In this document: piece after piece, positions 25,078 to 28,469 of the stretch
Layout of the letters: the number at the start of each line of letters is the position of its first letter
How positions within the stretch are numbered: position 1 is the first letter of the stretch
Assembly: GCA_963808235.1 (NCBI GenBank)
Contig: CAWEEQ010000004.1
Coordinates: forward strand, 1,856,001-1,920,000
Length of the DNA: 64,000 nt
From: an uncultured delta proteobacterium
GTDB taxonomy: Bacteria; Desulfobacterota; Binatia; Binatales; Binataceae
Direction of reading: 5' to 3'
The notes under the pieces: model-generated
Seen by the model: the letters and a program-made list of their open reading frames with translations, nothing else
Database searches by the model: none
Told to the model about the DNA's origin: nothing
Made by a program: the position numbers and the translations under genes

Positions 25078-25101
25078 ACTTAAAGTAATCGTTTAAGTTT
25101 G

Positions 25102-26379
25102 ATGTCATCGAGTCCTGCGAGCTCAACCCTTGCTATTCTCGGCGGCGAACCGACGCGCACCCGCCCCTTCTCCAAGTGGCCGATCTTCGATCCGCGCGAG
25201 CGTGAGCAACTCGAAGACGTTCTCACTTCCGGGAGTTGGGGCGGCTTCCCGTCGCCCAATCGCAAGGCTGCCGAATTCTCCGCCGCATTCGCCGCCTATC
25301 ACGGCGCGCGCTTCGCGATCCCGACCACCTCGGGCACCAGCGCGCTCGAAGTCGCGCTTAAAGCGCTTGGCGTCGGACCCGGCGACGAAGTGATCGTGCC
25401 GGCGATTACGTTCGCCGCAACTCCGTACGCAGCGATCGCATGCATGGCGCGACCCATCTTCGCCGACGTGAGCGCGGCAACCGCCTGCATCGATCCCGCG
25501 TCGGTACAGCGGCTCATCACTCGGCGCAGCAGGGCGATCATCCCGGTGCATTACGGAGCATCGCTCGCTGATCTCGACGCCCTGATGGAAATCTCGCGCG
25601 CGCATTCGATCCCGATCGTCGAGGATTGCGCGCACGTGCCCGGCGCCCAGTGGCGCGAGCGCGGAGTCGGAACTCACGGCGCGCTCGGATGCTTCAGCTT
25701 TCAGAGCAGCAAGCCGATGACTGCTGGCGAAGGGGGGATGATCCTCGTCAATGACTCCGAGCTCGAACAGCGTTGCCAGTCGCTCATCAACTGCGGCCGC
25801 CGCCGCCCGACTGACACGTTCGAAGGCCCGCTGATGGGCGCGAACTATCGGATGACGGAATGGCAATGCGCGATCGCGCTCGCACAATTGTCGCGTCTGC
25901 CGGAACAGATCGAGCACAAGAGCAAAAACGCAGCGCGCTTGCGCGAGCGGCTTGGCGCGATCAGGGGCGTCAGAACGATCGCCCGCGATCCCCGCGTCAC
26001 CCGCGAGACAATCTACACGTTCGCTTTTCTGGTCGATGAAGGCGCACTTGGAGTGTCGCGCAATCGGTTTGTCCGCGCGATGCGCGCGGAGGGAATCCCG
26101 TGCGGCGTCGGCAATGAGCCCGTCTATCGGTCGCCGCTGTTCCCGCTTGAATCTGGCGAGTACCGCAAGGCGTGCGAACTTGCTGGTGCCAGCGGCAACC
26201 AGGCAACCAGCATTGATTGCCCAATCGCCGAACGGATCTTCGCGCATGAGATGGTCGCGATACCGCATGAATGCCTCCTGGGCGACGCGCGTGACATGGA
26301 CGATATTGTCGCCGCAGCCGTCAAAGTGGCTTCCAGAGCCAGTGAGCTTAGTCGAGCTACACTCGAGCACACGGTCTAG
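25102..26379 (+). CDS. DegT-family PLP aminotransferase (RifK/StsC-like subgroup)
   Basis: LAILGGEP, TSGTSALE, EDCAH, FSFQSSKPMTAGEGG, GANYRMTEWQ. Confidence 0.9.
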   Translation: MSSSPASSTLAILGGEPTRTRPFSKWPIFDPREREQLEDVLTSGSWGGFPSPNRKAAEFSAAFAAYHGARFAIPTTSGTSALEVALKALGVGPGDEVIVPAITFAATPYAAIACMARPIFADVSAATACIDPASVQRLITRRSRAIIPVHYGASLADLDALMEISRAHSIPIVEDCAHVPGAQWRERGVGTHGALGCFSFQSSKPMTAGEGGMILVNDSELEQRCQSLINCGRRRPTDTFEGPLMGANYRMTEWQCAIALAQLSRLPEQIEHKSKNAARLRERLGAIRGVRTIARDPRVTRETIYTFAFLVDEGALGVSRNRFVRAMRAEGIPCGVGNEPVYRSPLFPLESGEYRKACELAGASGNQATSIDCPIAERIFAHEMVAIPHECLLGDARDMDDIVAAAVKVASRASELSRATLEHTV

Positions 26380-26384
26380 GCATC

Positions 26385-27749
26385 ATGCGAGAACTCCTCG
26401 CCGGTGCGGCACGAATAAAACTGGATCCGCCGCTCGGTCTCGCGATGGCGGGATACGGCAATCGAGTCGGTCGCGCAAACGGCGTGCATGACGATCTCGC
26501 GGCGCAAGCGTTGGTGCTGAGCGACGGCGTCACCAAGGTTGCGATCGCCGGCGTCGACGTTCTCGCGATCGGCCAGCGCATCGCCGATGACATCCGCGAG
26601 CGCGTCGCCGCAAAGTCGGACATCGCCGCCGATGCGATCATGGTCTGTGCAACGCACACCCATTCCGGACCCGCCTTCAACATCTTCGCGACTCCGCGCG
26701 CAGAGGCAAAACCAGGCGAAGGCCGCAGTCTCCAATGGGAACGCACGCTGCCCGCAAAGATCGCAAGCGCAATTATTCGCGCCAATGAGACACTCGAACC
26801 CGCATCGCTTAGCGATGCCAGCGCGCGATTCACGCTCGGAACCAATCGCCGCCTGATGCGTCCGAATGGGCAGATTCAACTCGCCGCAAATTACCAGGGG
26901 GTGGCCGACGGCGAAGCTGGAGTCCTCGCGGTGTCCAACCGCAGTTCAAAGCCCATCGCATTCCTCTTGAATTATCCATGCCACGGCGTCGTGCTCTGCG
27001 AAGATAACCTGCTTTACTCGCGCGATTGGCCAGGCTTTGCCATGGACGAGATCGAGCGCGCCGCGTCTTCCGATCGCGGCAACCCGGCAATCTCAATCTT
27101 TGCGCAAGGCGCTACCGGCAACATCGATCCGCGCAGCCGCGGCAGTTTCGACGTCGCCGAAGAGAACGGCCGCTTGATGGGTCGCGCTGCGTTCGAAGCG
27201 ATCAGCCATGCGCCTGCGCTCTCAGATACTCGCATCTCGGTACGCAGAGTGCCGCTGAAGCTCGCGCTCAAGAGTCTCGACGGCTCACTGGCGAGCGCGC
27301 GCGATGGTGTCGCTCAGACTGAGACTTCGTTGAGCAGCCATCGCGGCGGTGACGGCTATCAGTTGAAGCGCCTGCGTGATCACCATGCACAATCGCTCTC
27401 CGCGCTCGCCGCTCTCGAGTTGCTCGAAGAGCAGAACCGCCGCGATCGGCGCGTCGACCTCGCGCGCCGCGAACTGTCAACCTCGATGACGATCGTCACC
27501 GTCGGCAAAATAGCGCTGGTCGGAATCCCCGGCGAGCTGTTTGTCGAACTCGGCCTGGCGCTCAAGTGCAATCCGCACTTCGCTCGCACCTTCGTGCTCG
27601 GCTACTGCAATGATCTGATCGGGTACATCCCGACTCGCGCGGCGTACGCAGAAGGTGGTTACGAAGTCGACACCGCCCGAATCGCCGCAGGGAGCGGCGA
27701 GAAAATTGTCGCGGTTGCGCTATCGACGCTTGAGGAAATGCACGGATAG
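26385..27749 (+). CDS. Neutral/alkaline ceramidase-like metal-dependent amidohydrolase
   Basis: MAGY, GVHDDL, ATHTHSGP, NYPCHG, QGATGNIDP, PGELF, GYIPT...GGYE. Confidence 0.85.
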   Translation: MRELLAGAARIKLDPPLGLAMAGYGNRVGRANGVHDDLAAQALVLSDGVTKVAIAGVDVLAIGQRIADDIRERVAAKSDIAADAIMVCATHTHSGPAFNIFATPRAEAKPGEGRSLQWERTLPAKIASAIIRANETLEPASLSDASARFTLGTNRRLMRPNGQIQLAANYQGVADGEAGVLAVSNRSSKPIAFLLNYPCHGVVLCEDNLLYSRDWPGFAMDEIERAASSDRGNPAISIFAQGATGNIDPRSRGSFDVAEENGRLMGRAAFEAISHAPALSDTRISVRRVPLKLALKSLDGSLASARDGVAQTETSLSSHRGGDGYQLKRLRDHHAQSLSALAALELLEEQNRRDRRVDLARRELSTSMTIVTVGKIALVGIPGELFVELGLALKCNPHFARTFVLGYCNDLIGYIPTRAAYAEGGYEVDTARIAAGSGEKIVAVALSTLEEMHG

Positions 27750-27752
27750 CCG

Positions 27753-28469
27753 ATGCGGCAGGTCGACCATCGTGAAGTGCTCGCGATGCGCTCGGCGGGC
27801 GCGCAAATCGTCGACGTGCTCCCGGCGCACGAATACAACCACACGCATATCAAAGACGCGGTTCATATCTCTCTGCCGCGAATTCTCAAAGACGCGCCAA
27901 CTATGCTCGATCCTTCGCGCCGGGTCGTCGTCTATTGCCGCGACTCGCTCTGAGATTTGAGCGCGCGGGCTGCGGCGCAGCTCGAATTCCTTGGGTTTCC
28001 GGACGTGGCGCACTACTTTCGCGGCAAGGTGGATTGGATGGTCCGCGGACTACCGACTGAGCCCGCACCGCCGCTTTCAGAGCGGATGCGCGCGCTTCGG
28101 TACTTCGTCAATAATCTTGCGCCAGGAATCCGTTCGGCGTGGATTCGCGCCTCGAATCGAACCACCGTGCGCGAGGCAATGCGCGACGATATTGCCCGCC
28201 TCCGTCCCGACGACGCTCTTCCGGCCGCGTCTGCGGGCTCGCCAACTCCGCGATCGGTGGTGCTGAATTCTGACGGCGTCCTGCTCGGCGCGATCGATAA
28301 TCCTGATGCCGCGCCGCGCGCGCACGAGTTCATGAACCCTGCGCCGCAGACCATTCGTCCCGATATGACGCCGCGGCTCGCGACAAAGCTGCTCGAATCG
28401 AATCCGTATCTGATTGTGACGACTGAGCACGGAAAATACCTGGGCCGCTACTCGCAGTCGCGCGGCTAG
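27753..28469 (+). CDS. Rhodanese-like plus degenerate CBS protein, probable selenoprotein (UGA at 27951-27953 read as Sec)
   Basis: Two in-frame ORFs join across a TGA as VVVYCRDSL-U-DLSARAAAQLEFLGF..V.HYFRGKVDW, giving one continuous rhodanese domain; a hairpin follows the UGA. Confidence 0.75.
27956..27986 (+). promoter_or_regulatory. Candidate bacterial SECIS hairpin
   Basis: TTTGAGC-GCGC-GGGCTGCG-GCGC-A-GCTCGAA folds by hand into an 11-bp stem with one bulge and a G-rich apical region about 14-16 nt after the UGA. Confidence 0.55.

Follow-up and report, generated by a model that had tools for sequence, protein, structure and literature searches.

Rhodanese domains that carry selenocysteine (Sec) are a known kind of selenoprotein. 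The lists published for the Sargasso Sea (PMC1088965) and GOS (PMC2398784) name rhodanese sulfurtransferases in the parts concerned, without a C-x4-U motif, and the text of a 2022 review distinguishes three rhodanese forms (PMC9312934). The main text of a 2026 inventory raises the number to five, with the motifs UxxS, UxxG, CxU (NF041203), UxxG and UxxxxU (TsoB), while neither "CxxxxU" nor "CBS" occurs in that main text (PMC13188914). The available text of the deep-Sep paper does not mention rhodanese (PMC12013277). Among the papers listed by a literature search combining Binatota with selenoproteins none treats both; with a ranking dominated by unrelated papers, this is weak evidence of absence.

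The locus described here was found in a 64,000-nucleotide stretch of genomic DNA (the window) of Candidatus Binatus. Positions 27753-28469 (+ strand) very probably constitute one gene for a 238-residue cytoplasmic rhodanese-CBS selenoprotein, in which the UGA at 27951-27953 is decoded as Sec. The protein shares with the five forms, as the inventory's main text describes them, a bacterial rhodanese domain, a UGA-encoded Sec in or at the active-site loop and the existence of Cys homologues. In forms 1, 2 and 4 of that text the motif starts with Sec, whereas here the rhodanese Cys is retained and Sec follows five residues on. Form 3 (NF041203, motif LYCAU) differs in spacing, C-x-U rather than C-x4-U, and its profile gives 19.5 bits against a cut-off of 115. 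TsoB (NF045694) likewise has a pair of chalcogen residues in its rhodanese domain, again with x4 between them. Residues 13-107 match profile positions 58-161 of TsoB weakly, at 23.6 bits where the cut-off is 805. TsoB extends over about 572 positions and has a DsbD-like part and two Sec residues, whereas the present protein lacks a DsbD part and combines a single Sec and a single Cys with a CBS pair. No NCBIfam model reaches its cut-off on the read-through protein, the profiles of TsoB and form 3 being the nearest among those for selenoproteins. The C-x4-Sec rhodanese-CBS form thus lies outside NCBIfam and the main text of the 2026 inventory; the supplements of the latter, the TsoB paper or Deng et al. 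(2026) may list the family.

What sets this form apart is the combination of a retained rhodanese Cys, a Sec five residues later, an enlarged acidic loop and a CBS fusion. It is widespread in uncultured soil bacteria, under the labels Binatia, Actinomycetota and Anaerolineales, and would offer a defined Cys/Sec pair for studying why selenium is used in the rhodanese loop at a position other than the canonical one.

Gene layout, fold and neighbourhood

The sequence-only reading had described two open frames parted by a TGA alone, which read through as YCRDSL[U] within a complete rhodanese domain, and this description is borne out. The first frame (27753-27953, + strand) begins with ATG and encodes 66 amino acids before it is closed by TGA 27951-27953; past this codon the same frame stays open as far as the TAG at 28467-28469. 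Translation of the whole gene from ATG 27753 gives 238 residues containing ...VVVYCRDSL[U]DLSARAAAQLEFLGF..., in which Sec is residue 67. A start codon stands at the position homologous to 27753 in all 36 orthologous loci. The Pfam Rhodanese model (PF00581; cut-off 22.2 bits) scores 50.2 bits with E 3.6e-13, and as its match runs from residue 8 to residue 95, over the TGA at residue 67, neither half is a whole domain.

The product comprises a rhodanese domain of about residues 1-105 (27753-28067, +), a linker formed by a helical hairpin, residues 108-134 (28074-28154, +), and a probable CBS pair or Bateman module of about residues 136-235 (28158-28457, +). The first of these rests on the Pfam match and on the top Foldseek matches, 3NHV, 3O3W and 6MXV. 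An AlphaFold2 model built on a 34-row alignment of the family (A2; mean pLDDT 91.9, pTM 0.89) shows, in this order, a strand at 58-61, the active-site loop at 62-68, a helix at 69-79, the helical hairpin at 108-134 (helices 108-122 and 124-134) and a beta/alpha C-terminal module. The linker is absent from distant orthologues, where A2 has a gap (rows L051-L056). The C-terminal part had been read as a degenerate CBS pair. The model and the structural matches favour this: against the PDB, the A2 profile aligns residues 136-234 with 9sr9_H at E 8.7e-7 and gives weaker CBS proteins besides, and Foldseek finds the CBS structures 5ks7 and 4gqy at a TM-by-target of 0.56-0.57; PF00571 is also precomputed on many homologues. 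The Pfam CBS model, on the other hand, stays below its cut-off on the 238-residue protein (19.5 bits against 24) and covers, of the two tandem beta-alpha-beta-beta-alpha motifs of such a pair, only the second, residues 192-231.

The active-site loop consists of residues 62-68, C-R-D-S-L-U-D (27936-27956, +), as placed by the model, A2 and the PDB alignments. Cys62 directly follows strand 58-61 in the model, and PDB rhodaneses match this model at a probability of 1.00; the canonical single-domain sulfurtransferases, among them PspE (2jtq), YgaP (5hbl) and the 6mxv and 1yt8 domains, are folded alike and have their Cys where the central strand ends. Sec67 lies five residues past this invariant rhodanese Cys in the pattern YC-x-D-x-x-U-D, and the proposal that Sec occupies the place of the second Cys of a YC-x4-C loop was correct. 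The canonical sulfurtransferase loop has six residues, C-R-x-G-x-[R/T], and is cationic. The present loop is two residues longer, carries Asp at +2 and +6 (residues 64 and 68) and has no loop Arg, and hence differs from the canonical active site of a thiosulfate sulfurtransferase. In the alignments the canonical rhodaneses 6mxv and 1yt8 show a two-residue gap exactly at U67-D68, and the loop Arg of 6mxv stands opposite Leu69 of this protein. Within A2, residues Y61, C62, D64, U/C67, D68, R72 and A73 are invariant, and the motif VYC[RFY]D..[U/C]D[LM][SG].RA is retained down to 33-35% identity.

The closest known structure is BH2092 of Bacillus halodurans (3NHV, 3O3W), the best match both by sequence (E 7.7e-13 and 1.2e-12) and by fold (Foldseek E 1.1e-7, TM-by-target 0.70). 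Its loop YCWGPACNG aligns with YCRDSLUDL without a gap, so that in BH2092, too, the loop is enlarged and its Cys residues are spaced as C-x4-C. BH2092 is a structural-genomics rhodanese of unknown function which differs from the present protein in having Cys instead of Sec and in lacking both Asp residues and the CBS pair. The papers listed by a literature search on BH2092, 3NHV and rhodanese-CBS fusions mention none of them.

Upstream, a gene for a DegT/DnrJ/EryC1-type aminotransferase (25099-26379, +) is followed head to tail, after a gap of 5 nt, by a neutral/alkaline-ceramidase-like gene (26385-27749, +; Pfam PF04734, E 5.2e-21). The stop of the latter lies 3 nt ahead of the selenoprotein ATG, so that these two genes are probably co-transcribed, and the three genes from 25099 onward look like an operon. 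By tblastn the ceramidase-like gene was found in 25 of the 36 loci L022-L057, namely in 24 of the 25 loci L022-L046 and in L050, and was not found in L023, L047-L049 and L051-L057. Genes for a GNAT protein, a ferredoxin and AcpS occur in most of L022-L047. The neighbours differ in distant Binatia, where they include a TPP enzyme, a metallophosphoesterase, an FAD oxidoreductase and an ABM monooxygenase. Beyond Candidatus Binatus, 8 of 32 loci (L131:630-1283, L135:294-929 and six others of L116-L148) have a gene for an ArsR-family HTH protein beside the one for rhodanese-CBS, in a search in which many of the ORF clusters are frames that overlap the rhodanese-CBS gene. The distant members have no conserved partner gene in common, and in the non-Binatus loci the ArsR-family gene alone recurs.

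Possible functions of the Cys/Sec loop

What might a rhodanese loop with both Cys and Sec do? In bacterial selenoproteins, Sec is usually found in a redox-active site opposite Cys. The motif lists in the main text of the 2026 inventory place it likewise, in a redox site with Cys (PMC13188914). In the present family neither Cys62 nor the chalcogen residue at 67 (Cys or Sec) varies, and a single loop, at the N-terminal end of a helix, holds both. As the favoured reading, though one that falls short of probable, Cys62 and Sec67 may act as a redox couple on sulfane sulfur or a similar electrophile. In such a mechanism, either Cys62 or Sec67 would take up sulfane sulfur or another electrophile, the partner residue would resolve the adduct via a selenenylsulfide bond, and a thiol reductant would re-reduce this bond, while the CBS pair would sense an adenosyl ligand or transmit the redox state. 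The loop, with its two Asp residues and no loop Arg, is unlike the loop of those sulfurtransferases that bind anionic sulfur donors, and these features argue against a classical thiosulfate sulfurtransferase.

The same acidic loop without a loop Arg keeps alive another reading, in which Cys, Sec, Asp64 and Asp68 bind or sense a metal or metalloid and the protein is a sensor or chaperone with the CBS pair as its output or regulatory module. The two acidic residues that flank Cys/Sec are invariant, the canonical loop Arg is missing, rhodanese and CBS are both typical regulatory modules, elsewhere in the genus a K+ channel carries the same C-x4-[U/C] rhodanese domain as a fusion, and ArsR-family genes are neighbours in 8 of the 32 non-Binatus loci. 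However, these neighbours are also consistent with the sensing of persulfide, no metal-handling genes are conserved nearby, and BH2092, as the closest structure, lacks both Asp residues. A metal or metalloid site is rather unlikely.

The strand-helix loop of seven residues (62-68), compared with the six of sulfurtransferases, also recalls oxyanion reductases or phosphatases of the Cdc25/Acr2 type, in which case Sec67 would be the resolving residue for Cys62. Cdc25B (2a2k) appears at rank 48 in Foldseek, and the ArsR-family neighbours would suit this reading as well. The loop motif of the Cdc25/Acr2 type is C-x5-R, with Arg at the loop end. This defining Arg is absent here, its position (+6) is taken by an invariant Asp that would repel anions, and the top matches in structure are single-domain rhodaneses that resemble sulfurtransferases. 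An activity of this type is distinctly improbable.

Decoding of the UGA codon

The case for Sec at UGA 27951-27953 (+) begins with the corresponding column of other genomes. In 36 orthologous loci, this column holds TGA in 27 and TGC (Cys) in 9; one of the TGA loci (L026) comes from the unpublished genome G023, without which the count is 26 of 35. A further locus, L058, with a CASLTC loop in a frame of 1059 aa, encodes a different protein and was left out of the count. When 61 relatives were searched in six frames, 34 of the 36 genomes that represent the rest of the genus had matches at E ≤ 0.001, some 30 of which are strong and represent near-full-length or fragmented orthologues. Extension of the search to 301 genomes of the class brought in four more genera of the family at 54-57% identity and eight more distant genomes at 34-43% (one of these being L058, later dropped). 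Three orthologues are in pieces or have several stops (G032:C13:228008-228694, with four TGA and one TAA; G004:C4:249340-250042; G025:C16:60720-61421) and may be decaying copies or assembly errors.

Among 80 loci retrieved from genome contigs, a set that overlaps the genomes just counted and is not additive to the 36, the column holds TGA in 61 and TGC in 15; it is not aligned in three and misaligned in one, L111, L112, L115 and L126 giving no alignment at this position. TGA is present in 28 of the 33 distant loci L116-L148, whose record titles, which are labels of metagenome-assembled genomes, assign 25 of these 28 to Actinomycetota (Solirubrobacterales, Thermoleophilia, Miltoncostaeaceae and Acidimicrobiales), two to Binatia and one to Anaerolineales. 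All five tested genomes of the distant TGA forms have a SelB-family match, in two of the five over the cut-off.

On a tree of the 34 A2 rows, calculated with the Sec column masked, the Cys forms are nested among Sec forms. At least four Sec/Cys changes are needed, of which only two are forced by well-supported branches. To judge from these sequences, the pattern fits an ancestral Sec in this clade, with Cys as a later replacement. L043 (G251:C2:901129-901830), a TGC form that stands beside a Sec form on the tree, has kept all eight pairs of the hairpin described below and looks like a recent Sec-to-Cys replacement.

Downstream of the UGA lies a putative SECIS hairpin at 27966-27984 (+), in which GGC (27974-27976) forms the loop between the two arms of the stem, 27966-27973 and 27977-27984. 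The earlier reading placed a stem-loop 2 nt after the UGA. A longer stem from about 27955 is indeed possible in the window, but the hairpin that is conserved across genomes has a stem of 7-8 bp which begins 12 nt after the UGA, its loop lying 20 nt after the UGA; all TGA forms have it, the 5' arm starting 15 nt on from the U of the UGA. The 27 TGA loci form all eight pairs in 22 cases and seven in the other five, with none at six, while the nine Cys loci form eight pairs in one (L043), seven in five and six in three. Across the 27 sequences 97.7% of the cells are paired, against 20-49% when the 3' partners are slid, and with 28 TGA forms of other phyla added (55 rows, 54 distinct) the figures are 97.1% and 22-39%. 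RNAalifold independently gives the same stem. Compensatory change is found at one stem pair only (C-G in 30, U-A in 21, A-U in one and G-U in one of the 54 distinct sequences), and as these changes mostly separate a few clades they represent few independent events; the hairpin moreover lies within the coding sequence of a conserved peptide, ARAAAQL, which is itself a constraint on the bases.

According to a figure legend of the 2026 inventory, the bSECIS model requires a loop of 3-9 nt, G[G|U] at the loop start, a spacing of 16-37 nt and an MFE of -7.5 kcal/mol or lower (PMC13188914, Fig. 2 legend). The hairpin lies within all these limits, with GGC or C-GGC-G as its loop, a spacing of 20 nt and -12.9 kcal/mol, and the loop has GG or GU at the consensus positions. 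The gain over shuffled sequences is modest for the hairpin alone (z -2.1; 10 of 200 shuffles fold equally well). The 76-nt region 27945-28020 folds no better than shuffled sequence (z 0.11), and the fold of this whole region was rejected as a signal; only the short conserved hairpin is meaningful. With an E limit of 10, an Rfam search of 27700-28200 gave four matches, none of which comes close to its gathering score. A conserved hairpin that satisfies the bSECIS model thus stands downstream of the UGA, as the earlier reading required, and as part of the best explanation of these sequences it would direct Sec insertion, SelB with Sec-tRNA(Sec) decoding UGA 27951-27953 under the direction of 27966-27984.

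The machinery for such decoding is encoded in the same genome (4 contigs, 4.59 Mb). The sequence-only reading had made its case depend on selA, selB, selC and selD, and all four are present, each over its curated cut-off: tRNA-Sec with 72.2 bits (gathering score 47; called SeC(tca) by ARAGORN), selB with 371.5 bits, selA with 569.9 bits and selD with 378.2 bits. The selD gene has an in-frame TGA of its own, as a Sec-type SelD; it lies on the - strand (L018, G000:C4:3730297-3731223) and adjoins selB at C4:3731555-3733447.

Selection acts with equal strength on both sides of the codon. Over 136 pairs from 17 TGA forms of the genus, dN/dS has a median of 0.22 before the TGA and of 0.21 after it; the equally low value downstream indicates that this part is translated in this frame. 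The codon itself is present in contigs of two soil-metagenome runs from two studies, which span 27951-27953 with no difference listed there (X1, record 3, 27687-28000; X4, record 16, 27473-27978). The runs were compared as DNA contigs, some parts of the gene being without cover in single runs, and X1 may be the sample from which the window was assembled; with this proviso, the TGA withstands the comparison with independent sequence that had been proposed for it.

The prediction that standard annotation would split the gene is confirmed by the databases. In this genome a C-terminal piece of 143 aa (P0022) is recorded as the product, and among the best 120 matches in the protein database 28 have at least 200 aa while 92 are short products, from which it follows that gene callers split the gene. 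The 25 commonest start strings of the short products, accounting for 67 of the 92, all lie downstream of the TGA column. The 28 full-length proteins have Cys at the Sec column in 27 cases and Trp in one. A profile search of 1.84 billion protein representatives yielded 98 proteins at E ≤ 1e-30; scored with the strict motif YC-x-[DNHG]-x-x-C-D, the best 150 representatives have Cys in 70, Ser in three, Trp in one and Arg in one, the 75 without the motif including fragments and multi-domain proteins. The Protein Atlas clusters of a Cys homologue (P0007) are all named "CBS/Rhodanese-like domain-containing protein". Two database proteins, P0009 and P0166, have Trp at the Sec column (SLWD), probably from a pipeline that translated TGA as Trp. 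Systematic mis-annotation thus turns members of the family into truncated "CBS domain" or "hypothetical" proteins, and recognition of the family would correct many database entries and add one family to the selenoproteomes of soil phyla.

Could the TGA nonetheless be a true stop, marking a broken gene, or a 66-aa N-terminal peptide followed by a separate CBS protein with an internal start? Gene callers give exactly such pieces, P0022 and the 92 short products being examples. Some termination at UGA is also expected under selenium limitation. Against this stand the retention of TGA in 27 of 36 loci and under three phylum labels, purifying selection equal on both sides of the codon, a domain that spans it, Cys in other homologues, the SECIS hairpin and the full Sec machinery, and we consider a true stop very improbable indeed. 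A sequencing or assembly error, or a reassigned code with TGA as a standard sense codon, could appeal to the Trp found at the column in one of the 28 full-length matches (P0009) and in one of the best 150 representatives, which suggests only that some pipelines translated TGA as Trp, and is regarded as refuted, because independent assemblies and contigs of two studies keep the TGA and because TGA is the ordinary stop of 4 of the 13 Pfam-supported genes in the window, so that the code is not reassigned.

Other rhodanese architectures in Candidatus Binatus

The C-x4-Sec rhodanese domain occurs in three architectures in Candidatus Binatus: with the CBS pair, with a K+ channel and as a probably secreted single domain. 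In the channel architecture (L065, G000:C4:943843-944175, - strand, and L149-L152), a rhodanese domain with a similar loop is fused to a K+ channel with the filter TATS[LIV]GYGD. The copy of the same genome, L065, is a Cys form (YCGKLTCDLS), and four relatives have YCG[QK]FTUTR with TGA. About 20 more matches of the channel type were found in relatives, with one TGA each and frames of about 150-512 aa. The channel fusion may be a selenoprotein ion channel.

It is conceivable, if doubtful, that the C-x4-Sec rhodanese is a portable selenium-based redox or persulfide switch and not a transferase, in which a Cys-Sec selenenylsulfide formed in the enlarged loop would gate the channel or the Bateman module. 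If so, the protein described here would act as a sensor based on selenocysteine, and the channel fusion would count as a selenoprotein ion channel.

The single-domain architecture is represented in the same genome, outside the window, by a second C-x4-U rhodanese of about 150 aa (L066:1261-1731; G000:C2:180169-180639, + strand), with a hydrophobic, signal-like N-terminal segment and the loop FYCADLHUTAS. A search of 31 relatives for this type gave 17 matches at E ≤ 1e-15, of which 13 have one in-frame TGA, three have none (one of these from the unpublished genome G018) and one has TAA.
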